Below are positions 3,946 through 21,219 of a DNA stretch of 32,000 nt, one piece after another. This DNA comes from Acidothermus cellulolyticus 11B. Lineage in GTDB: Bacteria > Actinomycetota > Actinomycetes > Acidothermales > Acidothermaceae. How positions within the stretch are numbered: the stretch's first letter is position 1; each line of letters starts with the position of its first letter. Under the pieces are notes generated by a model. That model did not search any database and had not been told where the DNA came from. It was given only the letters and a program-made list of their open reading frames with translations. Made by a program: the position numbers and the translations under genes. The stretch is taken from positions 2,340,001 through 2,372,000 of the forward strand of contig NC_008578.1 in assembly GCF_000015025.1 (NCBI RefSeq). The letters run 5' to 3'.

Positions 3946-4857
3946 CTACTTCCCGCCGTTCAACGCCGCTTCGGCCGCCTTGACGGACGGTGCGCTGCAG
4001 ACATTTGTCGGCTGACCGCCGGTCGCCTCGCAGATTATCGCGGTGTAGATGTCAGCGGCGGCAAGAATCGCCTTGCCTTGCTTGGAGGACGGATCCTCAA
4101 GCGCCTTGGCAACCTGGTCCACCGTCATTCCGCTCAGCAACGTCGGTTGAAGGGCATCGCCTTTCTGCGCCCATTTGCCGGCAAAATCGATGAACGGGTA
4201 GGCCAGCCCGCCTACTGACTGGAAGAGGGAATTTTCGGCGCTGGTGAGCTGCTCCAGCGGGCGCCCCAGCCCGTCCTCTTCTTCCTTGCCGACAAAGACC
4301 AGGTACGGGCTGGAGTAGCTGGACTGGTAAAAGGAGAGGGTCGGAATGTGGGCCGGTGAGTCGCTGTTCGACGAGTACGTCGTCTTCAGATTGCTGAACT
4401 GGCCGAACCGGCTGAGCGCAATGGCCAGGGGCCACCGGGTGTTGCCGCAGTGCGGGCAGTATTCCGCGCCAACGTAGAGGACTTCCGGCTTTCCCCCGGA
4501 GGTGAGCGGTTGACCGTCGAGCTTGGCCGGCGGACCGGCGATCGTCGAGAAATCCGGCGTTGTCGAGGTGCGCTGCGCCGCAGCCTGAAGCGCGTTGAGG
4601 ACGGACGGGGCAGCGGGTGTCACGGGATTCGCCTTCGCGCCGTGTGACGACTTGGTCACCACGCCGACGATGATGACCGCTGCCACGACGGCAAGCACGG
4701 CGAGCACGGAGCCGCCGACGACCATGATGTTCCGGCGCCGCTCCTTCCGGGCCTGGGCGGCGCGCTGCGCGGCGATCCGTTCGGTGGCCGCACGCTTGGC
4801 GGCGTACTTGGCGGAGACCCGCTCCGACGAGTGAACGCTTCGATCGTCGCCGCTCAC
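3946..4857 (-). CDS. Membrane-anchored DUF929 thioredoxin-fold protein with a CPHC motif (DsbA-like partner of VKOR)
   Basis: GAEYCPHCGNTRWPLAIALSRFGQFSNL matches my recollection of the DUF929 signature. The N-terminus is basic and cytoplasmic, followed by one transmembrane helix (VVGGSVLAVLAVVAAVIIVGVV). I chose the GTG at 4857, preceded by GGAGGAGG, over the track's 4980 start. Confidence 0.65.
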   Translation of the reverse strand: MSGDDRSVHSSERVSAKYAAKRAATERIAAQRAAQARKERRRNIMVVGGSVLAVLAVVAAVIIVGVVTKSSHGAKANPVTPAAPSVLNALQAAAQRTSTTPDFSTIAGPPAKLDGQPLTSGGKPEVLYVGAEYCPHCGNTRWPLAIALSRFGQFSNLKTTYSSNSDSPAHIPTLSFYQSSYSSPYLVFVGKEEEDGLGRPLEQLTSAENSLFQSVGGLAYPFIDFAGKWAQKGDALQPTLLSGMTVDQVAKALEDPSSKQGKAILAAADIYTAIICEATGGQPTNVCSAPSVKAAEAALNGGK

Positions 4858-5000
4858 GTGCGTCCTCCTCCGCCGATCGGCACGAACCCTGCCGCGCCAC
4901 TGAGCATACGACGCCGCCACAGTAGCGGTTCGATCTGAGAGCGTGCATAACGAGGGCCCCTGGTCATCCCAGGGGCCCAAGGACCGAAACGGGAGCGCGG

Positions 5001-5210
5001 CTACTGCCCGGAGCGCTGGAGTGGAACTCCCCCGAGGAGCGCCCGGACCTCGGTCTCCCGGTAGCGGCGGTGGCCGCCGAGGGTGCGGATGGAGGTCAGC
5101 TTGCCCGCCTTCGCCCAGCGGGTGACGGTCTTCGGATCGACCCGGAACATCGTCGCGACCTCCGCCGGCGTGAGCAGCGACTCCGCCTCAGGTGTGCGTG
5201 CGTGTACCAC
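5001..5210 (-). CDS. bldC: BldC, a small MerR/excisionase-like developmental DNA-binding protein
   Basis: The 69-aa protein MVHARTPEAESLLTPAEVATMFRVDPKTVTRWAKAGKLTSIRTLGGHRRYRETEVRALLGG is near-identical to Streptomyces BldC as I recall it. Confidence 0.9.
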   Translation of the reverse strand: MVHARTPEAESLLTPAEVATMFRVDPKTVTRWAKAGKLTSIRTLGGHRRYRETEVRALLGGVPLQRSGQ

Positions 5211-5323
5211 GGAACTTCCTCCAATCAGAGCCGACGCGCTGCCGACTCCTCCTCCTTGAGCCGACGGAGCGTCGGCCCCCCACTACGGGATGGCGTAACC
5301 CAACCCGTAGATGAATAGTGCCT

Positions 5324-5361
5324 GATGACCCGGATGTCCGAAATGGTCCAGGCGGGTCATC
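5324..5361. promoter_or_regulatory. Inverted repeat 114-151 nt upstream of the bldC start; candidate operator or 5'-UTR stem-loop
   Basis: GATGACCCG (5324-5332) pairs perfectly with CGGGTCATC (5353-5361), giving a 9-bp stem and a 20-nt loop. A perfect 10-bp palindrome GTACTAGTAC at 5375-5384 lies in the same locally AT-richer tract. Confidence 0.35.
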
Positions 5362-5941
5362 TTGGAATCTTGATGTACTAGTACCCGATACGCCATTCAG
5401 CGGAAAGCTCTGACCGGATTGCACGAAAGAACCCATCTGGTCGAGCGTCGCACGACACGAAATTCCTTATACGGAAAGGAGTTCTGTCTCGTCAGTACCT
5501 GCGGGACGGAACACGGCGCCGCGTCGCACGATCCTGCTGAGTCGCGTGCCGATACCGAACTGCGCTGACCGCGCACACGGCAATTTGCGACATAACTGCG
5601 TCACTTGGCAATGTTTTTGACAGCGTCCCTCGGCCCGTGCGGCGCCCATACCAGCAGCGATATGACGGAATGTGACACCACAATTACCGGGTGCAAAGAA
5701 TTCACGGCCGGGCGCATGCGGTTTATCCCATAACGCACGCGTGTCAACCGAAGCCGCTGACGACTCCACCGTCCGAGGACGAAGAACGCACGATCGACAC
5801 GTACCAAACGAGCGTGTCGAGGCAGCGGCGCGTCACCGCGCGGAGGTGACGACGCATACCACGCGACCAGCGTGACCAACAGGCGCGCGCCCACCAGGTG
5901 ATCACAATCGGCGGAAAGCGCGACGGGAAGTGATCAGCCCG

Positions 5942-6672: not shown

Positions 6673-7725
6673 TCAGCGATAGACGCCGACCAAGTGGGCC
6701 GCCGCGTCGTCCGCCCGGGGCTGCACGTGACCGGCGACCCAGGCGCGGATGCCGGTCGCGTTGAGCAGCTCGACGGCACGATCGGCGTCCGGTGACGCGA
6801 CGATCGCAACCATGCCGATGCCCATGTTCAATGCCCGCTCCAACTCCGCTTGCGGCACACGGCCGAGCTCGCCGACCAGGCGGAAGATCGACGGCGGCTG
6901 CCAGGTGGATCGATCGATCACGGCCGTGTACTCCTCGGGGATGACGCGAGCGACGTTCCCCGCCAGTCCACCGCCGGTGATATGGGCGAAGGCGTGAACG
7001 TCGACGGCTTCCCGAAGCCTCAGGCAGTGCGGTGCGTAGATCGTCGTCGGCGTGAGCAGCTCGTCGCCGAGGCTCCTGCCGAGCTCGGGGACGTACCGAT
7101 CGAGTCGCCAGCCCGCCAACGTGAAGAAGATGTGCCGAACGAGCGAGTACCCATTGGCGTGCAGCCCGGAGGATGCCATCGCAACAACGGCGTCACCGGC
7201 GGTGACGCGATGCGGGCCAAGGAGCGCATCTTCCTCGACGACGCCGGTGGCTGCTCCGGCGAGATCATACTCATCGGGCTCGAGCAGCCCGGGATGCTCG
7301 GCGGTCTCGCCGCCGATCAGCGCGCAACCGGCGATCCGGCAACCCTCGGCAATCCCCGCGACGATGGTCGCAATCCGCTCGGGAACGATCTTTCCGCAGG
7401 CAATGTAGTCCGTCAGAAAGAGCGGTTCACCGCCGCAGACGACGATGTCGTCAACCACCATCGCGACGAGATCGAGGCCTATCGTGTCGTGCCGGTCGAG
7501 CATCCGTGCGATGGCGACCTTGGTTCCGACGCCGTCGGTCGACGTCGCGAGCACTGGGCGCCGATAGCGCGTCAGGTCGAGCCGGAACAAGCCTGCGAAA
7601 CCGCCCAGCCCACCGAGCACTTCGGGACGGGACGATCGAGCCACCGCCGTCCGCATAAGTTCGACGGCCCGCTCACCAGCGTCGATGTCGACGCCGGCCG
7701 TCGCATACGAGACCGGGCCGGTCAC
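6673..7725 (-). CDS. purM: Phosphoribosylformylglycinamidine cyclo-ligase (AIR synthetase)
   Basis: 350 aa with YATAGVDIDAG, GGLGGFAGLF, STDGVGTK and DDIVVCGGEPLFLTDY motifs. The 4-nt overlap with purF indicates coupling. Confidence 0.95.
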   Translation of the reverse strand: MTGPVSYATAGVDIDAGERAVELMRTAVARSSRPEVLGGLGGFAGLFRLDLTRYRRPVLATSTDGVGTKVAIARMLDRHDTIGLDLVAMVVDDIVVCGGEPLFLTDYIACGKIVPERIATIVAGIAEGCRIAGCALIGGETAEHPGLLEPDEYDLAGAATGVVEEDALLGPHRVTAGDAVVAMASSGLHANGYSLVRHIFFTLAGWRLDRYVPELGRSLGDELLTPTTIYAPHCLRLREAVDVHAFAHITGGGLAGNVARVIPEEYTAVIDRSTWQPPSIFRLVGELGRVPQAELERALNMGIGMVAIVASPDADRAVELLNATGIRAWVAGHVQPRADDAAAHLVGVYR

Positions 7726-9242
7726 GGTCGCTCCAAAGCCGAACCGCCGCCCACGGACGGCAGGCTGGCGAGCAGGCTCCGCGTCGAGATCGTCTCACCC
7801 CGGCTGAAGAGCTCAGCGTCCGGAACCGGAGTCGGATAATCGCCGTCAAAGCACGCCCGGCAGAGTGCATGCCGCGGCATCCCCGTCGCGGCAACCAGGC
7901 CATCAAGTGAGACGTAGCCGAGGGAATCCGCACCGAGTGAGCGGCAGATTTCGTCGACGGTAAGGCCGTTCGCGATGAGCTCACCGCGTGTAGCGAAGTC
8001 GATGCCGTAAAAGCAGGGCCACTTCACCGGCGGCGAGGAGATGCGCACGTGCACCTCAGTCGCCCCCGCTTCGCGCAGCATGCGAACCACCGCTCGCTGC
8101 GTATTCCCTCGCACGATCGAATCGTCGACGACGACAAGCCGTTTCCCCCGGATGACGTCACGGAGGGGATTGAGCTTGAGCCGGATGCCGAGTTGCCGCA
8201 GGCTCTGCGACGGCTGGATGAACGTCCGGCCCACGTATGCGTTCTTCACCAAGCCGGCGGCGTACGGAATGCCCGATTCCTCGGCGTAGCCGATCGCCGC
8301 AGGCGTTCCGGAATCCGGGGTGGGCATCACGAGGTCGGCGTCCGCCGGGGCCTCGCGGGCCAACCGACGCCCGACCTCAACCCGAACGGCATGCACGTTG
8401 CGGCCTCCGAATCGCGAATCGGGGCGCGCCAGGTAAACGAATTCAAAGACACAGAACCGCGGTGCCGGCGGCGCAAAGCGCAGGGACCGCGGACCGCGTT
8501 CATCAATCGCCAGCAATTCACCGGGCTCAATGTCCCGGACATAGGCCGCGCCGACGATATCGAGCGCCGCTGTCTCACTCGCCACCACCCAACCACGTTC
8601 GATTCTGCCGAGCGCCAACGGGCGAAAACCCCGTGGATCGCGGGCGGCGTACAGAGTGGTCTCGTCGAGAAACACAAAGCTGAAGGCCCCGTCGACTCGA
8701 GGCAATACCGCCAGGGCGGCGTTCTCCAGACTCTGTTCAAGGTGCGCCGCCAGAAGAGCGGTCACCAGATCGGTATCCGACGTCGAGGACACCGGCCGCC
8801 TGGTAAAAGGAATCTCACCGCTCCGCTCGCCCACGTCCTCGAGCATTTTCGCGAGCTCACCGGTATTCGTGAGGTTTCCGTTGTGCGCCAGAGCGATGCT
8901 CCCGACTGGTGTGGCGCGAAACGTTGGTTGCGCGTTCTCCCAGACCGATGCGCCTGCCGTCGAATACCGAGTATGACCAATGGCGACGTGTCCACGCAGG
9001 CCGGCAAGATTCGCCTCGTTGAAGACCTGAGAGACGAGGCCCATATCCTTGTAGACGAGAATCTTCTCGCCGTTGCTCACGGCGATGCCTGCGGATTCTT
9101 GACCGCGGTGCTGCAGTGCGTACAACCCAAAGTAGGTAAGGTTAGCCACCTCCTCCCCGGGAGCCCAGATACCGAAGACTCCGCACTCTTCCCGGGCGCC
9201 GGAAAAAGCCGGGGCAGGAGCTCGGCCGTCGCAGACACGCAC
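7722..9242 (-). CDS. purF: Amidophosphoribosyltransferase
   Basis: It has an N-terminal propeptide followed by the catalytic CGVFGIW, then YALQHRGQESAGIA, HTRYST and the PRPP loop VVVDDSIVRGNT. The GTG start at 9242 follows GGAAGGGA, but the exact start is uncertain. Confidence 0.93.
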   Translation of the reverse strand: MRVCDGRAPAPAFSGAREECGVFGIWAPGEEVANLTYFGLYALQHRGQESAGIAVSNGEKILVYKDMGLVSQVFNEANLAGLRGHVAIGHTRYSTAGASVWENAQPTFRATPVGSIALAHNGNLTNTGELAKMLEDVGERSGEIPFTRRPVSSTSDTDLVTALLAAHLEQSLENAALAVLPRVDGAFSFVFLDETTLYAARDPRGFRPLALGRIERGWVVASETAALDIVGAAYVRDIEPGELLAIDERGPRSLRFAPPAPRFCVFEFVYLARPDSRFGGRNVHAVRVEVGRRLAREAPADADLVMPTPDSGTPAAIGYAEESGIPYAAGLVKNAYVGRTFIQPSQSLRQLGIRLKLNPLRDVIRGKRLVVVDDSIVRGNTQRAVVRMLREAGATEVHVRISSPPVKWPCFYGIDFATRGELIANGLTVDEICRSLGADSLGYVSLDGLVAATGMPRHALCRACFDGDYPTPVPDAELFSRGETISTRSLLASLPSVGGGSALERP

Positions 9243-12860: not shown

Positions 12861-13106
12861 TCACTCGGACCGGCGCACGACAAAGTCTTCGATCACTGGA
12901 TTGCTCAGCAGCGTGGCGGCCAGCTCTTCGATCATTGCAAGCGTGGCGTCGTCGAGGGTGCCGTCGACGTCCAGCTCAAAGTGCTTCCCTTGACGGACAG
13001 AACGGACTCCCGTGTGCCCCAATCTCTTGATCGCACCAAGAATCGCCTGACCCTGCGGATCGAGGATCTCAGGCTTGAGCATGACGTCGACAGCGACGCG
13101 CGCCAC
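12861..13106 (-). CDS. purS: Phosphoribosylformylglycinamidine synthase subunit PurS
   Basis: 81 aa, reading VDVMLKPEILDPQGQAI...NPVIEDF. It uses a GTG start after AAGGAG and sits directly upstream of purQ. Confidence 0.9.
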   Translation of the reverse strand: MARVAVDVMLKPEILDPQGQAILGAIKRLGHTGVRSVRQGKHFELDVDGTLDDATLAMIEELAATLLSNPVIEDFVVRRSE

Positions 13107-13162
13107 ATCAACTCCTTGCGGTACGGGCGACCGGACGCGTCCAGCGTAATCGAGCAGGCGGG

Positions 13163-13400
13163 CACGGCTCGCGGTGCTCCCACGGCGCGCGGGGCGGCAC
13201 GGGCACGGTGCTCACCCTGACGTCCACGGCTCGCGGTGCTCCCCCATGGCCCGCCGGGCGGCACGGGTGACGCCGAGGCCCCGGTCAATGCGTGCGGCAC
13301 CCCGTTCCCAGCGGCTGCGCAGGTCGGATGACGTGTCTTCGCCGTGCCCGGCATGCCCCAGGCGACCCGGGCGGCTGCGCAGGTTGGGTGGTGTGCCCAC
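13163..13400. repeat. Degenerate tandem repeats of about 60 bp between purS and the accessory cassette
   Basis: cacggctcgcggtgctccc occurs at 13163-13181 and 13225-13243 (62-bp spacing), each followed by ...cggcacggg. gcggctgcgcaggt occurs at 13311-13324 and 13371-13384 (60-bp spacing). Confidence 0.75.
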
Positions 13401-13461
13401 GCGGCGCATGTCCTCCGCCGGCACGCCGGACGGCGGGGGGCACGCGCCACGCAAAGCACCC

Positions 13462-13490
13462 TTGACAGACGAATTCACCATAAGTAGTCT
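13462..13490 (+). promoter_or_regulatory. Consensus-like housekeeping-sigma promoter for the 13552-15922 cassette
   Basis: TTGACA (13462-13467), an exact 17-nt spacer, then TAGTCT (13485-13490), which fits TAnnnT. It lies about 60 nt upstream of the ATG at 13552, which follows GGGGGGA. Confidence 0.5.
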
Positions 13491-13551
13491 CAGCAGACGG
13501 TTAGTGTAATGGACGGTGTAAGCGACTGACTGACGAAGTTTCGGGGGGATC

Positions 13552-14577
13552 ATGAAACCGCATCGGCATGTCGTCACGGACGTTGACGCTTGTCTCGGCC
13601 CCGCTGAGGGTCGATTCTTCGGCTCCGGTTATCGCCGGGTCACGCGTGAGCTCTCGGAGGTTGTGCTGCGGGCCATGTCGTTGGGAGACTCAATCGAAGC
13701 CTGTGCCCGTGTCCACTATCCCGTCGATTGGTCGTGCAAGGCCGCCGGAGAGCTTGCTCCTCACCTGAGCAGTATTGACGCGGCACTGATCGCCATCGAC
13801 CTTGCCGAGTTGTATGTGTCGCACGGCGAACGTTTCGACGGCGACGCCCGCCGACGCAGCTGGATATCCGAACTTGCCCTGACTGCAGGTTCACGCCCCA
13901 CTGATGTGCGCACGGCATTTCCCTGCTCGCTTCACGCAGCGGAGGGCGGCTCACGGGAGAACGGGCATTTTCGGACCCGATTTGACGGGCGAATCGGGTC
14001 GATCCGTGTCCGGCTCGAGATTGAGCACGACGTCGCGCTCCCGCCGCTTCCCCAGACCGGCCGCACCGTTGTCGACGCATCGGTCCTCGGGACGGACGGC
14101 AGCCGCTACTTCAGCACGGGTTATCGCAACCGGCGGCATACGATTTCTGAGCTCCTCGTGGACGTTGAACGCCGCGCCGCCGCGGCCAGTCTCATGGTGA
14201 GCGGCGACACGTGCCGATCCGACACCGGTCTCGGTGGCGCATATCAGCCCACCGTCTCCGTCATAGAAATCATCGTGAGCCTGGCCCAACTCGCGCAGGT
14301 CGTCCTCTACCAGGCGGACGATCTGCCCCGGCAACACAGCAATACGCTCTGGATGCGCGCGATCTGGCTCACCGCCCATACGCCCTCGCATCCCCTGAAC
14401 GCGCCCATCCCGATCCGCGTCGGCACACGCCGGTGGGACCAGGTACAAATGGACTCGCGCACCTGGCGGCTGGCCGAATTCTACGGATCCCTTCCGGGCG
14501 TTGACGTCGGCGCACGACTCGCGCATGCCCTGCCTGAACGCGTGAGTCTTCCGGAATTAGACCGGGTGGCGCCGTGA
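13552..14577 (+). CDS. Internally duplicated protein, tentatively AvrD-family (syringolide-type acyl-sugar signal synthase-like)
   Basis: 341 aa in two homologous halves. LGPAEGRFFGSGYRRVTRELSEV aligns with LGTDGSRYFSTGYRNRRHTISEL, PHLSSIDAALIAIDLAELYV with YQPTVSVIEIIVSLAQLAQVVLY, and RRSWISELALTAGSRP with SNTLWMRAIWLTAHTP. The RYFGxGY and SNTLWMR motifs match my recollection of Pseudomonas syringae AvrD, but the family call is unverified. The gene itself is well supported by its long ORF, ribosome-binding site and promoter. Confidence 0.5.
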   Translation: MKPHRHVVTDVDACLGPAEGRFFGSGYRRVTRELSEVVLRAMSLGDSIEACARVHYPVDWSCKAAGELAPHLSSIDAALIAIDLAELYVSHGERFDGDARRRSWISELALTAGSRPTDVRTAFPCSLHAAEGGSRENGHFRTRFDGRIGSIRVRLEIEHDVALPPLPQTGRTVVDASVLGTDGSRYFSTGYRNRRHTISELLVDVERRAAAASLMVSGDTCRSDTGLGGAYQPTVSVIEIIVSLAQLAQVVLYQADDLPRQHSNTLWMRAIWLTAHTPSHPLNAPIPIRVGTRRWDQVQMDSRTWRLAEFYGSLPGVDVGARLAHALPERVSLPELDRVAP

Positions 14578-15143
14578 ACTGCCGCGCGCCGTTCCTCCTC
14601 CGAGACGACATTCTCGTCATCTTCGAGGGCTCCCGTCGTCTCATCTGGCGTCCTCAGGGCCGTCGCGACGCTGTCCCTGAATTGTGGCCCCAGAAGGCCG
14701 ACATCGAGTGGATCGCCAGACGAAGGAACGGCGGGCGGCCGATCCTCGTTCTTCTCGAGGAACCTCCCGCCCGACTCACGTTCCTGCCGGAGGAGGTTGA
14801 GGCTTTCCCCAAGAAGCTCCTGCGCTACGTACGCCCCACCGACGGTGGGCTTTTTGAATTCGTCATTCCATTCCTCGACTGGCTGCCGGAAGACGTCCGC
14901 GGCCGGGCGCAGATTCTGGTGAGCCGTGCGACGGCGCTTCGCGCGACATCGCCGACGCCCTTGCTGCCGCCGTGGCTGTTCGAAACCGACGTCGACAGCC
15001 GGGAGAGCGTGCGCTTTGCCTTCCGGCTGCGCCCACATCTATGCAGTGACGCCGATGTCGCGGCCCTCGCCGCCTACGCGCGCGGCAGTCTGCCGCCGCT
15101 TGAACCGGCGCATTCGTTCAGAGAAGAGGTACACAAGGCATGA
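14574..15143 (+). CDS. Hypothetical protein with no recognisable domain
   Basis: 189 aa. Its GTG start overlaps the upstream TGA (GTGA at 14574-14577) and its stop overlaps the next ATG (ATGA at 15140-15143). The composition looks coding, whereas the competing minus-strand ORF 14481-15038 is Arg-rich shadow sequence. Confidence 0.6.
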   Translation: MNCRAPFLLRDDILVIFEGSRRLIWRPQGRRDAVPELWPQKADIEWIARRRNGGRPILVLLEEPPARLTFLPEEVEAFPKKLLRYVRPTDGGLFEFVIPFLDWLPEDVRGRAQILVSRATALRATSPTPLLPPWLFETDVDSRESVRFAFRLRPHLCSDADVAALAAYARGSLPPLEPAHSFREEVHKA

Positions 15144-15922
15144 CGCAGTCCGTCCCGCAACCGGTCGCCATCGCAATTTCCGGAACATACTCCACCGGAA
15201 AGACGACGACAACCGAAGCACTGTCTCTGGCGACCGGAATCCCGACAATCCAGGCCCGATCAGCGAGAGAAATTCTCTTTGACCTGACGCCGGAGAAGAA
15301 CTTTCAGCACCTGGATGCACGTGAGCTTCTTGCTCTCGGCCTGCGTCGGCTCGAAGAACGCATTCACGGCGAGGCTCTTGCCGCATCAAACGGCTGCTTT
15401 CTCTCTGACGGCTCGGTGTTGAACGAGTGGGTTTACGGAAGGGTCCGTATGATTGTGGGACTCAATCCCGGTGCACCGTTGCTTGAGCGGGCGCTGCGCC
15501 GCATCGCCGGCTTCGGCGCCCGACGCTTCACGGAACGCTACCTGGACGCCTACGGTACGGTCGTGAAGGAGCGCGCAAAGCGCCTGTACACGTGCTTTGT
15601 TCACCTGCCGGTTGAGTTTCCGATGGATCCGGACGGTCACCGGCCGGTCTCCGAGAGGTACCGCACGCTCTCCGACACGTTGCTGCTCGACACCGTCAAC
15701 GAGCTCGGAATACCGTGCGCGGTCGTCCGCGGCACCCTATCCGAACGGATCGCGGCAATTGTCGACCACTATCGTCTTCCCCTTGCCATGCCGATAGAGG
15801 ATGCCGTTCGGCTCGCCCGAGAACGCATCGGCGCAAGCCGGGATGCACTCCACGAACGCTGGCTCGCCACCCGTGAGCAGCCGTCGATCGTCCGCCGAAT
15901 GCGATACGCCTCGCGCTATTAG
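15140..15922 (+). CDS. P-loop NTPase of the AAA_28/NadR-kinase-like type
   Basis: 260 aa with a Walker A motif in IAISGTYSTGKTTTTEAL close to the N-terminus. It has the size and layout of small-molecule kinase-like AAA_28 proteins. Its start is coupled to the upstream gene by an ATGA overlap. Confidence 0.6.
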   Translation: MTQSVPQPVAIAISGTYSTGKTTTTEALSLATGIPTIQARSAREILFDLTPEKNFQHLDARELLALGLRRLEERIHGEALAASNGCFLSDGSVLNEWVYGRVRMIVGLNPGAPLLERALRRIAGFGARRFTERYLDAYGTVVKERAKRLYTCFVHLPVEFPMDPDGHRPVSERYRTLSDTLLLDTVNELGIPCAVVRGTLSERIAAIVDHYRLPLAMPIEDAVRLARERIGASRDALHERWLATREQPSIVRRMRYASRY

Positions 15923-15999
15923 GCGGCCGCCCGACGCCGACAGCATGCCCGGCATCCACGTCGGCACCCAACGGAAGACCCGATGACCATGGAGGATTC

Positions 16000-17586
16000 A
16001 TGACCGCTCCGACAACATCCCGCTGGTGGACCCTGCTCGTCGTCGGCATTGGCACCTTCATGCTGATGCTCGACATCAGCGTGGCGAGTATTGCGCTGCC
16101 GCAGATCCGCGCGTCATTGCACGCGAGCTTCGCCGAGCTGCAGTGGGTTTTTGACGCGTATGCCCTGACACTCGCCGCCTTTCTCGTGACCGCCGGCTCA
16201 ATCGCCGACCGGCGGGGGCGCCGCGGTCTCTTTTTTCTCGGCCTTCTCGTGTTCACCGCCGCCTCGCTGAGCTGCGGTCTCGCCCCCAATGCGGTGGCGC
16301 TCAACGTGAGCCGCGGCTGTCAGGGCGTGGGGGCTGCAATTCTCTTTGCCGTGGGTCCGGCGCTGCTCGGCCAGGCGTTTCACGGCAAGGAGCGGGCGAT
16401 GGCATTCGGTGTCTTCGGCGCCGTCACGGGCATCGCTGTCGCGTCCGGGCCGCTCATCGGCGGTGGTCTCACCTCGGGCGTGAGTTGGCGGTGGATCTTT
16501 TTGCTCAACGTCCCGCTCGGTGTGTCGGCTGCGGTCATCACCCGGCTGCGCGTACAAGAGTCCCGGGACCCACGCGCTCGGGGAGCGGATTGGGCAGGCA
16601 TGCTGACCTTCACCGTCGCCCTCGCTGCCATCGTCTACGCACTCATCCGCGGCAATGAGATCGGCTGGACGAGTCCGGAGATCCTCGCAATGTATGGCAT
16701 TTCGGCTGTCATGCTTGTTGCCTTCGTTGTGACGGAGCGGCGGCTCGGCGAGCGGGCGATGTTTCCGCTTTCTTTCTTTAGGAACGTCATATTTGTCGGC
16801 ATCTCGCTTGTCGCTCTGATTGCCAACGGCTCGGCACTGCCCGCGATTTTCCTCGAGACGAATTACGTGGAGAACATCATGCACCTGTCGGCGTTCAGCA
16901 CGGGCGTTCGCTTTCTTCCGCTGACCCTGGCGCTGTTCGTGTTCGGCGCCGTAGCGGGCGCACTGACTGGTCGGGTGCCGTTCCGTCTTCTCATGGGCGC
17001 CTCCTGTGTCGCCCTCGGCATCGGCCTGCTGCTCGCCCGGACGACGACCGCTGATTCACGGTGGACGGCGCTTGTCCCGAGCATGATTGGAATGGGCGTT
17101 GGAATGGGCATTTTCAACCCGACGCGCGCCGCACTCGCGATCGGGGTCGCCGAACCGCGGGACGCCGGCGTCGCCTCCGGTATCAATGAGACCTTCCAGC
17201 AGGTGGGCATTGCGGTCGGCATCGCCGGCATCGGCGCGCTTTTCCAACACCGCGTCGTGTCGCTGTTCGCGGATTCGCAAGCGGGACACCTGCTCGGCGG
17301 CCAGGCTGCCTCGGGGGCGGCCCGGGGCATCAGCGCCGGTTCCCTGGACTCCGTCGCCGCCGCGTTCAGTGGGCTGCGCGACATGGTCCTCCGTGACGGC
17401 CGAGCCGCCTTTGTGGCCGCATTTCACGACGCCATGCTGGCCTGCGCGACGTGCGCTCTTGCCGCAGCCGCTCTCGCCGCCCTGCTCCTGCGTACCAAGG
17501 ACCTCCACGCCTCCGCGCTCTCGCTTGTGCCGCCGGAGACCGAGACGGACGCCGCGGAGCGAACGGCGGTCGCTGCCCGCTCCTAG
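16000..17586 (+). CDS. MFS transporter, DHA2 (EmrB/QacA, 14-TMS) drug/metabolite:H+ antiporter family
   Basis: 528 aa. It has LDISVASIALPQI, a motif A-like GSIADRRGRRGLF and LGVFGAVTGIAVASGPLIGG, with about 14 hydrophobic segments. GGAGGA precedes the ATG at 16000. Confidence 0.85.
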   Translation: MTAPTTSRWWTLLVVGIGTFMLMLDISVASIALPQIRASLHASFAELQWVFDAYALTLAAFLVTAGSIADRRGRRGLFFLGLLVFTAASLSCGLAPNAVALNVSRGCQGVGAAILFAVGPALLGQAFHGKERAMAFGVFGAVTGIAVASGPLIGGGLTSGVSWRWIFLLNVPLGVSAAVITRLRVQESRDPRARGADWAGMLTFTVALAAIVYALIRGNEIGWTSPEILAMYGISAVMLVAFVVTERRLGERAMFPLSFFRNVIFVGISLVALIANGSALPAIFLETNYVENIMHLSAFSTGVRFLPLTLALFVFGAVAGALTGRVPFRLLMGASCVALGIGLLLARTTTADSRWTALVPSMIGMGVGMGIFNPTRAALAIGVAEPRDAGVASGINETFQQVGIAVGIAGIGALFQHRVVSLFADSQAGHLLGGQAASGAARGISAGSLDSVAAAFSGLRDMVLRDGRAAFVAAFHDAMLACATCALAAAALAALLLRTKDLHASALSLVPPETETDAAERTAVAARS

Positions 17587-17666: not shown

Positions 17667-18143
17667 TTACGCCGGCCAGTGGTTGGCGAGCACCTTCCGG
17701 GTCAGATCGGCGTAGGTGTCTCGCTCGGCGGCGGTCAGAGGGGAGAAGATTTCGGCCTCCACCTCGTCGGCGACCCGATGTGCTGCGGCGAGATTACGCC
17801 GTCCCGCGGCCGTCAGGAGCAGATCGTGCCGGCGCCGATCGCTCCGGTTACGCGATCGCTTGACGTAGCCCAGTTGTTCGAGGTCGTCGACCAAGGCCAC
17901 GACGGTGGTCGGATCGACACCGATAAGCCGTGACAATTCTTGTTGGGACAGAGGTGGTTCGCGATCAATAGCACTGAGCATGAAATATGTCCGTGTTGTC
18001 AGCTTTACCGCGGCTAGTCGCTCTTCGAAGGTGTGCAGCAGAATTTGGGTCAGCTTGTAGCTGAGAAAGCCTACTCTGCGACTAAGCGACAGCGACGCGA
18101 AGTTCGTTGGATTGCCTACTGGCCCAGTCAGACACTCAGTCAT
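17667..18143 (-). CDS. MarR family transcriptional regulator
   Basis: 158 aa with a winged HTH: LSQQELSRLIGVDPTTVVALVDDLEQLGYVKRSRNRSDRRRHDLLLTAAG. Confidence 0.85.
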   Translation of the reverse strand: MTECLTGPVGNPTNFASLSLSRRVGFLSYKLTQILLHTFEERLAAVKLTTRTYFMLSAIDREPPLSQQELSRLIGVDPTTVVALVDDLEQLGYVKRSRNRSDRRRHDLLLTAAGRRNLAAAHRVADEVEAEIFSPLTAAERDTYADLTRKVLANHWPA

Positions 18144-20276: not shown

Positions 20277-20744
20277 ATGAGCCGCATGACTGACGATGAT
20301 TTCCGGGCCGTCGTCGACTTCCGACTCCAGTTGCGCCGCTTCATTCGCTGGAGTGAAGCAGCAGTACGCCGAGCCGGCCTGACCCCCGCGCAGCATGAAT
20401 TGCTTCTCGCCATTCGGTATCACCCGGACTCACGGGGGCCGACGATCGGGGAGATCTCCCAGGCGCTCGCCCTACGGCCGCACAGCACGGTCGGCCTGGT
20501 TGACCGTGCAGAGGCCGCGGGTCTCGTCGTCCGCCATCGCACCGATCGCGACGCGAGAGTCGTGCGGGTGACCTTGACCAGGCGCGGCGCCCAGCGTCTG
20601 ACCGGACTCACAAGCCAGCACGTCGCGGAGATTCGGCGTCTGGCGCCGGCATTTGCCCGTCTGACAAAGGAGCTGGCGGCGATGCAAGAGGAACACGCAA
20701 CCGATTCACCGGCACGCCGACGGCCCGCCCGACACACCGGCTAG
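20277..20744 (+). CDS. MarR family transcriptional regulator
   Basis: 155 aa from the ATG at 20277, which follows GGGAGG. It reads LTPAQHELLLAIRYHPDSRGPTIGEISQALALRPHSTVGLVDRAEAAGLVVRHRTDRDARVVRVTLTRRG. The track's 20154 start adds a Cys/Arg-rich extension that does not look real. Confidence 0.8.
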   Translation: MSRMTDDDFRAVVDFRLQLRRFIRWSEAAVRRAGLTPAQHELLLAIRYHPDSRGPTIGEISQALALRPHSTVGLVDRAEAAGLVVRHRTDRDARVVRVTLTRRGAQRLTGLTSQHVAEIRRLAPAFARLTKELAAMQEEHATDSPARRRPARHTG

Positions 20745-20796
20745 CACGATCGACTTGCTGGGAAACCGCGGCCACTTCTCATCGGCGAGATCGATA

Positions 20797-21219
20797 TCAC
20801 CGTCGGCCGGCCGCGCAACCGGGGCAGGTGCCAACCACCTCCAGCGTATGGTCGACATCGACAAAACCAGCGCGTGCCGCAACCCGCTCGGCCCACCGTT
20901 CGACGGATATCCCTTTGACTTCGACCGTCCGGCCGCAGTACCGGCACCGCAAGTGGTGGTGATGGGCGTTCGTCTCGCATTGCCTGTAGAGGGTCTCGCC
21001 GTCCGGCGCGCGCAAGGTATCCACGAGACCGGCCTCCGCCATCGCCCGCAATTGGTTGTAGACGGTGGTGAGCCCGACCGACTCGCCACGATCAATCAGG
21101 GCCTCGTGCAGCTCCTGAGCACTCCGAAACTGGCGTGACTCAGCCATGACTTGGGCGAGCGCCCGCTTCTGCCGTGTCGAACGACTCTGCCGGCCTTCAC
21201 TGGATCCGCTCATGGTCAT
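20797..21219 (-). CDS. zur: Zinc uptake regulator, Fur family
   Basis: 140 aa from the ATG at 21219. FRSAQELHEAL...VGLTTVYNQLRAMAEAG...HHHHLRCRYCGRTVEV...GTCPGCA is very close to Streptomyces/Mycobacterium Zur as I recall them. It is divergent from a metal ABC transporter operon. Confidence 0.8.
   Translation of the reverse strand: MTMSGSSEGRQSRSTRQKRALAQVMAESRQFRSAQELHEALIDRGESVGLTTVYNQLRAMAEAGLVDTLRAPDGETLYRQCETNAHHHHLRCRYCGRTVEVKGISVERWAERVAARAGFVDVDHTLEVVGTCPGCAAGRR

Follow-up and report, generated by a model that had tools for sequence, protein, structure and literature searches.

A probable minimal small-metabolite operon of the AvrD/MmyD type in Acidothermus cellulolyticus 11B carries a previously unnamed accessory protein family

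Gamma-butyrolactone and furan hormones of bacteria originate from tandem hot-dog synthases (AfsA/ScbA/MmfL) that couple a beta-ketoacyl thioester with dihydroxyacetone phosphate (DHAP); reductases and phosphatases then convert the resulting butenolide phosphate into a diffusible signal. Butenolide synthases of the AvrD type have been tied to three products only: syringolides, methylenomycin and sphydrofuran. AvrD by itself is sufficient for syringolide production in E. coli (PMC3879358), and avrD-like genes were described in a 2014 P. syringae paper as widespread and clustered with enzymes. Deletion of mmyD abolishes the methylenomycins, and the proposal for MmyD is that it couples a pentulose to a beta-ketoacyl thioester (PMC12593393). 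Table S1 of that 2025 JACS paper labels MmyD 'Butenolide synthase', MmyX and MmyK 'Kinase' and MmyP 'Phosphatase' (PMC12593393); these labels are all sequence-based, the paper defers the roles of MmyG, K, Q, X and Y to future work, and the middle steps of the pathway, including those of MmyX and MmyK, are explicitly left unresolved (PMC12593393). The AvrD homolog SAM23877_3931 is required for sphydrofuran in Streptomyces ambofaciens (PMC11195616). Here we describe an AvrD-family locus from Acidothermus cellulolyticus 11B, contained in a 32,000-nucleotide stretch of contig NC_008578.1 (positions 2,340,001 to 2,372,000) that we refer to as the window. A preliminary description of this DNA had called AvrD chemistry essentially unexplored in actinobacteria, which, given MmyD in methylenomycin and SAM23877_3931 in sphydrofuran, was overstated.

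We find at this locus a minimal and hitherto undescribed version of the butenolide-synthase clusters of the AvrD/MmyD type, together with a new conserved accessory protein family. Its core is a cassette of three genes, encoding protein 1 (P1, AvrD family), protein 2 (P2) and protein 3 (P3, AAA_28 family), with a major facilitator superfamily (MFS) exporter gene and a MarR-family regulator gene downstream. As the count of co-occurrence from three independent anchors indicates, the conserved core is AvrD together with a P3-type protein in Actinobacteria, Firmicutes and Gammaproteobacteria, with P2 an actinobacterial accessory and a short-chain dehydrogenase/reductase (SDR) optional.

The assignment of P1 to the AvrD family, and the prediction that it has a tandem hot-dog fold, were made in the preliminary description, which had staked its reading on both; both were found. 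P1 matches the Pfam AvrD model PF05655 over its full length (model positions 4-331 of 331; 237.2 bits against a cutoff of 25; E = 4.2e-70), which is its sole Pfam match at E <= 1, and it contains no AfsA domain (PF03756). The AlphaFold2 (AF2) model of P1 (predicted local distance difference test score (pLDDT) 90, predicted template modelling score (pTM) 0.90) comprises two repeats, with a sheet wrapping a long helix. The top 50 Foldseek matches to this model are all double hot-dog proteins at probability 1.00, among them TesB (E = 2.5e-9), dehydratase domains of polyketide synthases (PKS), FatB and MaoC, with modest TM-scores of 0.38-0.47, and from this confident model we predict that P1 adopts a tandem (double) hot-dog fold.

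P1 is 32% identical to MmyD, 28% to P. savastanoi AvrD and 21% to Streptococcus mitis AvrD. When P1 was aligned with P. savastanoi 1448A AvrD, MmyD and the S. mitis, Xenorhabdus, Acidothermus and Streptomyces homologs, invariant residues were found in the first half (LG15-16, R21, F23, G26, W60, S61, K63, H71, L72, S73 and D76) as well as in the second (R194, G226, Q246, Y253, R260, S263, T265, W267, M268, W305 and L327-P328). H71 and D76 belong to the motif 'PHLSSID', with which the first central helix begins; the invariants of the second half include Q246, R260 and 'SNTLWM'. Collectively, P1 is predicted to be a butenolide synthase of the AvrD/MmyD type.

P3 belongs to the AAA_28 family (PF13521; E = 2.9e-23, 83.3 bits against a cutoff of 27), as had been proposed from the letters of the DNA, and its Walker A motif GTYSTGKT (residues 15-22) is invariant across phyla. 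The accompanying label 'NadR-like' found no support: NadR matched P3 neither in our PDB searches nor through any NCBIfam NadR model. The identity of P3 is 43% to MmyX (E = 8e-59) and 36% to MmyK (E = 2e-38), both of which also score above the AAA_28 threshold, and P3 defines a distinct, longer (~255 aa) and highly conserved subfamily relative to these two proteins. A genome scan with P3, taking one genome per species, gave 200 loci with a relative, of which the best 80 were examined. At these 80 loci the relatives are 49-68% identical to P3 and are found in actinobacteria (Acidothermus, Streptomyces, Amycolatopsis, Nocardia, Lentzea and Actinacidiphila), in Firmicutes (Streptococcus mitis, S. 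oralis, S. pseudopneumoniae, S. equinus, Lactobacillus and Limosilactobacillus) and in metagenome-assembled genomes (MAGs) of Gammaproteobacteria. An alignment of 15 sequences from the three phyla retains 61 invariant columns. Single-sequence and profile searches of the PDB with P3 returned only generic P-loop kinases, and these weakly (2rhm, E = 0.12; 1zp6, E = 0.15; adenylate kinase, E = 0.3).

Co-occurrence of the trio in other genomes, which the preliminary description had named as a check, was observed from all three anchors. With P3 as the anchor, 76 of the 80 loci carry an AvrD homolog 5' of the P3 gene and on its strand, and three of the four exceptions are truncated contigs; AvrD is directly adjacent without P2 in 47 loci, P2 stands between the two in 22, and an SDR ketoreductase is present in 20. 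With AvrD as the anchor, an AAA_28 gene is in the block in all five loci that have enough flanking sequence (L003, L004, L086, L089 and Xenorhabdus L087/L088; our locus numbers), and the actinobacterial ones also carry P2. With P2 as the anchor, AvrD and AAA_28 are present in four of four loci. In L091 the trio is reproduced exactly, down to a 4-bp overlap at each junction, and such overlaps recur in L002 and L090 as well. The five genes of the window (MFS, MarR, AvrD, P2 and P3) are all present in Streptomyces sp. SAJ15, and in identical order in Acidothermus MAGs. Amongst plasmids, each AvrD record from outside Pseudomonas (Streptomyces, Nocardia, Bacillus, Ralstonia, Lactobacillus and Arthrobacter) has a P3-like gene nearby, mostly directly adjacent, and the 17 Pseudomonas avrD plasmids have none nearby.

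Several loci exhibit variations of this arrangement. In many genomes of the Streptococcus mitis group, AvrD is found as two to three separate hidden Markov model (HMM) matches in different open reading frames (ORFs) at about 6900-7970, with the downstream P3 gene intact (L026, L028, L032, L036, L040, L042, L044, L046, L049, L051, L056, L061, L064 and L067), which suggests that the AvrD copies of some strains are frameshifted or decaying. Four Nocardia loci (L033, L076, L077 and L082) have two P3-like paralogs flanking the MFS gene (~4986-5615 and ~8001-8753) and no P2, a pair that mirrors the MmyX/MmyK duplication of the methylenomycin cluster; the HMM scan of the window found one P3-type gene and zero SDR genes. 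An unannotated family of ~240-254 aa without a Pfam match is encoded directly 5' of AvrD in three metagenomic or MAG loci (L003 4563-5327, L004 1-711 and L008 ~4535-5536) and is absent from the window. In Lactococcus lactis KF147 (llkf_1224-1226) and S. mutans TnSmu2, an 'AvrD family macrolide biosynthetic protein' is encoded beside a non-ribosomal peptide synthetase (NRPS)/PKS island, and two genes past this AvrD gene lies a 651-nt hypothetical gene whose best match is an Enterococcus 'ATP-binding protein' (PMC5822349); this gene 3' of the lactococcal AvrD may encode another P3-type partner. Our literature search returned no paper naming AvrD together with AAA_28, and nothing on the streptococcal AvrD-AAA_28 version.

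P2 is a real, unnamed protein family without a recognisable fold relative. That it has no recognisable domain was correctly noted in the preliminary description, as Pfam, NCBIfam and profile searches all agree, but the term 'orphan' was not borne out. A single-sequence, word-indexed search with P2 had given one relative only, from the same species and 98% identical, and this was a limit of the word index, as profile searches recovered the family. At three other loci the ORF that takes the place of P2 matches it along the whole length with 31-49% identity, and 26 columns are invariant among the four sequences; a profile search gave 20 members, some from cultured Streptomyces; and an exhaustive HMMER search of 1.84 billion representatives gave 212 clusters at E <= 1e-3, 186 of them at E <= 1e-10. 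Nearly all members are standalone proteins of ~175-220 aa. Apparent domain fusions (P0140, P0122, P0077 and P0147) were set aside, their low-complexity Arg/Pro-rich extensions looking like mis-called ORFs. The GC content of the P2 frame at codon positions 1, 2 and 3 (GC1/2/3 = 0.72/0.49/0.75) is coding-like. Its AF2 model (pLDDT 86, pTM 0.82) has no fold match in a Foldseek search of the PDB (best E = 0.31, TM = 0.19), and its sequence profile found nothing significant there. Several metallophosphoesterases were among the top non-significant matches, and this identity was rejected on the absence of invariant His/Asp metal-binding motifs in P2. The family is restricted to actinobacteria, where it is always embedded in AvrD/AAA_28 blocks; it is missing from Nocardia, Actinacidiphila and the methylenomycin cluster, and the Firmicute and proteobacterial versions do not contain it.

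The features of the locus are collected in Table 1. The three ORFs and their overlapping stop and start codons are at the positions originally given for them, GTGA at the junction of P1 and P2 (14574-14577) and ATGA at that of P2 and P3 (15140-15143), and the coupling that was read from them is largely upheld. No alternative start for P2 or P3 preserves the conserved N-termini of the homologs, and all three frames have the normal GC1/2/3 pattern of high-GC coding sequence.

Table 1. Features of the AvrD locus, in window coordinates
Feature	Position	Strand	Remarks
Promoter-like element	13462-13490	+	-35 13462-13467, 17-nt spacer, -10 13485-13490
Protein 1 (P1, AvrD/MmyD family)	13552-14577	+	341 aa, ATG start
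Protein 2 (P2)	14574-15143	+	189 aa, GTG start
Protein 3 (P3, AAA_28)	15140-15922	+	260 aa, ATG start
MFS pump, DHA2/EmrB type	16000-17586	+	528 aa; Pfam, NCBIfam
MarR-family regulator	17667-18143	-	158 aa; convergent with MFS gene; Pfam

That an exporter and a MarR regulator follow the trio was likewise upheld, and both travel with the cassette. The MFS gene (Pfam MFS_1, E = 2e-45; NCBIfam TIGR00711, E = 3e-64) begins after a 77-nt gap, has a GGAGGA ribosome-binding site, and is separated from P3 by no called terminator; it accompanies the cassette in most actinobacterial loci. The MarR protein (Pfam MarR_2/MarR, E ~1e-13), whose gene is next to that of the pump in Acidothermus, Streptomyces and metagenomic loci, is likely the regulator of the pump or of the operon. 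In other lineages these two parts are swapped for an ATP-binding cassette (ABC)/FtsX exporter and a two-component system (S. mitis) or for MFS with TetR/GntR (Xenorhabdus), and this substitution of like for like across phyla supports a secreted product under dedicated control. The earlier suggestion of a secreted metabolite or signal thus keeps its first element, the secreted product being supported by context, and a signal is only one possible role. In one S. mitis locus (strain B_009152_10, L020 4633-11706), a histidine kinase and a LuxR-type response regulator are encoded 5' of AvrD-AAA_28 and an ABC ATPase and FtsX-type permease 3' of it, all on the same strand; this is reminiscent of a module made up of synthase, exporter and sensor, here in an oral commensal of humans.

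Upstream of the cassette, the promoter-like element reads TTGACA, 17 nt, TAGTCT, with the AvrD start codon ~60 nt further downstream. It had been called near-consensus, which is accurate for the -35 and not for the -10 hexamer: TAGTCT agrees with TATAAT at 3 of 6 positions and fits the actinobacterial TANNNT form. A strict sigma-70 scan did not call a promoter at these positions because of this half match to the E. coli -10 criterion. We therefore consider the relaxed motif TTGAC-N16-18-TANNNT, scanned across the loci with both strands counted. This motif is rare, with 2 copies in the 32-kb window and about one for every related locus of 16.7 kb. The two Acidothermus MAG loci (L002 and L005) each have their sole copy upstream of AvrD; in Streptomyces-type loci, whose block order is MFS-MarR-AvrD-P2-SDR-P3, the sole plus-strand copy is 100-200 nt 5' of the first gene of the block in 14 of 14 cases; and in L003, L004, L007 and L008 the motif is also found 5' of the MFS gene. 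Its recurrence at the head of homologous blocks is far above chance. Because the motif is rare and its position is conserved across loci, we accept the element in the window as a real promoter, which probably heads AvrD-P2-P3-MFS.

Amongst the Streptomyces-type loci, 12 (L011, L015, L018, L029, L030, L071-L075, L079 and L084) have a palindrome, ATCATCGG-N5-6-CCGATGAT, inside 'TCAAATCATCGG...CCGATGATTGAGAA', just past the -10 element and ~10-45 nt 3' of it upstream of the MFS gene (e.g. L015 ~2375-2405). This has the appearance of an operator for a repressor, and MarR is the candidate to bind it. The palindrome is absent from the window and from the Acidothermus promoters, and a MarR operator of this type in the window promoter was rejected on that ground. 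The intergenic region between purS and avrD (13163-13451) contains repeats of its own: a 15-nt unit present three times (13163, 13181 and 13225), a 37-nt unit present twice, 60 nt apart (13311 and 13371), and a 21-nt inverted repeat (13400-13420 / 13431-13451; 81% complementary) that ends 10 nt before the -35 element. These could be a regulator site, or a terminator or insulator for the divergent purS side. An Rfam scan of 13000-16100, leader included, found zero RNA elements.

The cassette is chromosomal and vertically inherited within the Acidothermus-related lineage. It is flanked by purL-purQ-purS on one side and dnaB on the other, and exactly the same arrangement is found in an Acidothermus sp. 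MAG, in which AvrD is 44% identical to that of the window, P2 48%, P3 68%, MFS 74%, MarR 58% and the housekeeping proteins 77-89%. The DNA of a JGI metagenome contig is 99.8% identical to the window. A second MarR-family gene and a divergent FUR-family gene are located 3' of dnaB (L001 6456-7392, window ~20280-21215), and probably have no relation to the cassette.

Taken together, we consider it reasonably likely that the locus is a minimal AvrD/MmyD-type operon for a small metabolite, AvrD-P2-P3-MFS with MarR, in which synthesis includes a kinase step and ends in export. From what is known of the family, AvrD would join a beta-ketoacyl thioester and a pentulose or pentulose phosphate into an acyl-butenolide, as AvrD does for syringolides; the donor would be drawn from primary fatty-acid synthesis, there being no gene for a dedicated ketoacyl-acyl carrier protein synthase III (KAS III) or acyl carrier protein (ACP) in the window. 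P3 would then phosphorylate a hydroxyl on the invariant, sugar-derived part of the intermediate, the phosphate serving either as a leaving group or as a mark on the product. More speculatively, P2, as an accessory specific to actinobacteria and evolving in step with AvrD, might bind or process the AvrD product or the phospho-intermediate, or bridge AvrD and P3. Judging from the conserved context, the product would exit through the DHA2 MFS pump, with MarR controlling expression. The window and S. mitis versions are 52% identical in P3 and 21% in AvrD, with P2 absent from the latter. From this difference, together with the lower identities of AvrD (44%) and P2 (48%) than of P3 (68%) against the Acidothermus MAG, we infer that P3 may recognise the constant sugar-derived moiety, and that AvrD and P2 may track the variable acyl part or each other. 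Acyl-supply genes adjoin the cassette in some relatives, with KAS III-ACP-ketosynthase (KS) immediately 5' of AvrD-P2-SDR-AAA_28 in L090, and an acyl-AMP ligase, a ketoreductase (KR) and an ACP beside AvrD-AAA_28 in Xenorhabdus; these genes argue for a biosynthetic role.

A number of points weigh against this proposal. The AvrD clusters of P. syringae and S. ambofaciens contain a histidine phosphatase and not a P3-type kinase, and because the characterised AvrD clusters have a phosphatase in place of a kinase, the direction of the phosphate chemistry is uncertain. The operon contains no phosphatase, reductase or acyl-supply genes, and its product could be very simple or reliant on unlinked genes. 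P3 has no close solved structure in the PDB searches, and its kinase label, like those of MmyX and MmyK, is a proposal from sequence. The MFS gene is probably the fourth gene of the operon, its co-transcription being deduced from the arrangement. No catalytic signature is detectable in P2, whose invariants are R, W, P and L, and the core chemistry does not require it, as Nocardia, the methylenomycin cluster and the Firmicute and proteobacterial versions all do without P2.

It is unlikely, in our estimation, that P3 acts ahead of AvrD, phosphorylating free pentulose or a related ketose such that AvrD receives a phospho-sugar, as AfsA does with DHAP. A universal small-sugar substrate would accord with P3 being far better conserved across phyla than AvrD (52% vs 21%), AAA_28 is known to include ribosyl kinases, and the phosphatases of characterised clusters (MmyP and the histidine phosphatases of P. 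savastanoi and S. ambofaciens) imply phosphorylated intermediates. However, xylulose-5-phosphate and ribulose-5-phosphate are abundant in the pentose-phosphate pathway, such that a dedicated kinase seems superfluous; syringolides are made in E. coli by AvrD alone (PMC3879358); and the presence of two paralogous mmy kinases, MmyX and MmyK, fits modification of several hydroxyls better than substrate supply.

The pairing of MarR with a DHA2 MFS pump is classic for drug efflux, and it raises the question of whether the locus is a sensing or detoxification module, in which P1 hydrolyses or opens an incoming acyl-lactone or thioester, P3 inactivates it by phosphorylation (cf. chloramphenicol phosphotransferase), the MFS pump expels it and MarR senses it. 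We regard this as decidedly improbable. Although the best fold matches of P1 are acyl-CoA thioesterases, and the S. mitis version stands beside a two-component system and an ABC/FtsX transporter as antimicrobial-sensing modules do, the AvrD members studied experimentally are all biosynthetic (PMC3879358, PMC12593393 and PMC11195616), P1 has the invariant residues of the biosynthetic prototypes, and the KAS III/ACP/KS or acyl-AMP ligase/ACP genes of its relatives are sensible only for biosynthesis. The single, 98% identical relative from the first P2 search and the weak P-loop match of P3 in PADLOC (mad8, 19.7 bits, E = 1.2e-4) might point to a chance juxtaposition in which P2 is not a gene, or to anti-phage defence built around a P-loop ATPase. 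Such readings have almost no probability left and are refuted by co-occurrence and conservation: P2 homologs occupy the same position in dozens of loci and share 26 invariant columns, the P2 frame is coding-like at GC3 and its AF2 model is confident, the genes co-occur from all three anchors, and neither AvrD nor P2 has a PADLOC match.

The locus is near the smallest natural AvrD-kinase context, with four co-oriented genes, no acyl supply and no redox tailoring, and this small gene set therefore makes it a clean system for learning how the kinase acts on the AvrD product. The P3-type partner is ~50% identical from relatives of Acidothermus to Streptococcus mitis, Lactobacillus and Gammaproteobacteria, and because the pair is conserved across these phyla, many bacteria, human commensals included, probably make a common, uncharacterised class of small molecule. 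More tentatively, and with doubts that outweigh our expectation, the AvrD-P3 pair might be the synthase core of an unrecognised cross-phylum family of diffusible phospho-butenolide or furan-type signals, each lineage having its own exporter and sensor (MFS and MarR in actinobacteria, ABC/FtsX and histidine kinase/LuxR-type in the S. mitis group, TetR/GntR in Xenorhabdus). P2 would then be a new-fold actinobacterial enzyme or specificity factor that co-evolves with the synthase and diversifies the signal.

The described systems that come closest to the locus are the methylenomycin cluster, the AvrD clusters of P. syringae/P. savastanoi and S. ambofaciens, and AfsA-type systems. AfsA-type systems have an analogous hot-dog synthase logic; the window differs from them in having no AfsA domain, a MarR protein instead of a TetR-family receptor, and a kinase instead of a phosphatase. 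The P. syringae/P. savastanoi AvrD is in the same Pfam family as P1 over its full length, has invariant residues in common with it, and is encoded by the first gene of a small-molecule enzyme operon (PMC3879358). Because AvrD alone suffices in E. coli, the Pseudomonas enzyme uses host fatty-acid intermediates, the source proposed here for P1. That operon, in contrast, encodes a histidine phosphatase, dioxygenases, a sulfotransferase, an aminotransferase and an AAA_18 ATPase, has no P3 or P2 homolog, and is HrpL-regulated and plasmid-borne. On the large plasmid of P. savastanoi pv. phaseolicola 1448A (L094 5977-12432), the histidine phosphatase gene directly follows avrD, and the AAA_18-type ATPase gene at the end of the operon (the PSPPH_A0106 position) adjoins the sulfotransferase gene; the ATPase may supply activated sulfate or act as a kinase. 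It was rejected as a P3 counterpart, AAA_18 being unrelated to P3. The sphydrofuran island GI-9 of S. ambofaciens also uses an actinobacterial AvrD homolog for a small furan metabolite, and contains an MFS gene and regulators (PMC11195616). Going by its published gene table, it differs from the window in its KAS III, ACP, histidine phosphatase, aldo/keto reductases and monooxygenases, and no AAA ATPase or P2-like hypothetical protein is listed beside AvrD.

The methylenomycin cluster, borne by S. coelicolor SCP1 and S. anthocyanicus plasmids, was recovered as the S. anthocyanicus plasmid match, in the order mmyD (AvrD), mmyX (AAA ATPase), KAS III, ACP, mmyP (a haloacid dehalogenase-type HAD-IB hydrolase), mmyK (ATP-binding) and mmr (MFS). 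The window has no counterpart of KAS III (MmyC), ACP (MmyA), the HAD phosphatase (MmyP) or the second kinase, and none of the redox tailoring (flavin/F420) enzymes, its operon being limited to AvrD, P2, P3 and MFS. P2 has no equivalent in mmy, and regulation is by MarR in the window as opposed to the TetR-type MmfR/MmyR system. The product of the window cannot be methylenomycin. Common to the two are an AvrD-family gene and, 3' of it in the same orientation, an AAA_28 gene (the immediate neighbour in mmy), along with an MFS exporter, which in mmy is at the position of Mmr. The view that no described pathway has the gene trio therefore needs to be divided: the association with P2 does appear to be undescribed, and the AvrD-kinase pair, which is widely distributed and unstudied, is already present in the methylenomycin cluster as mmyD-mmyX.

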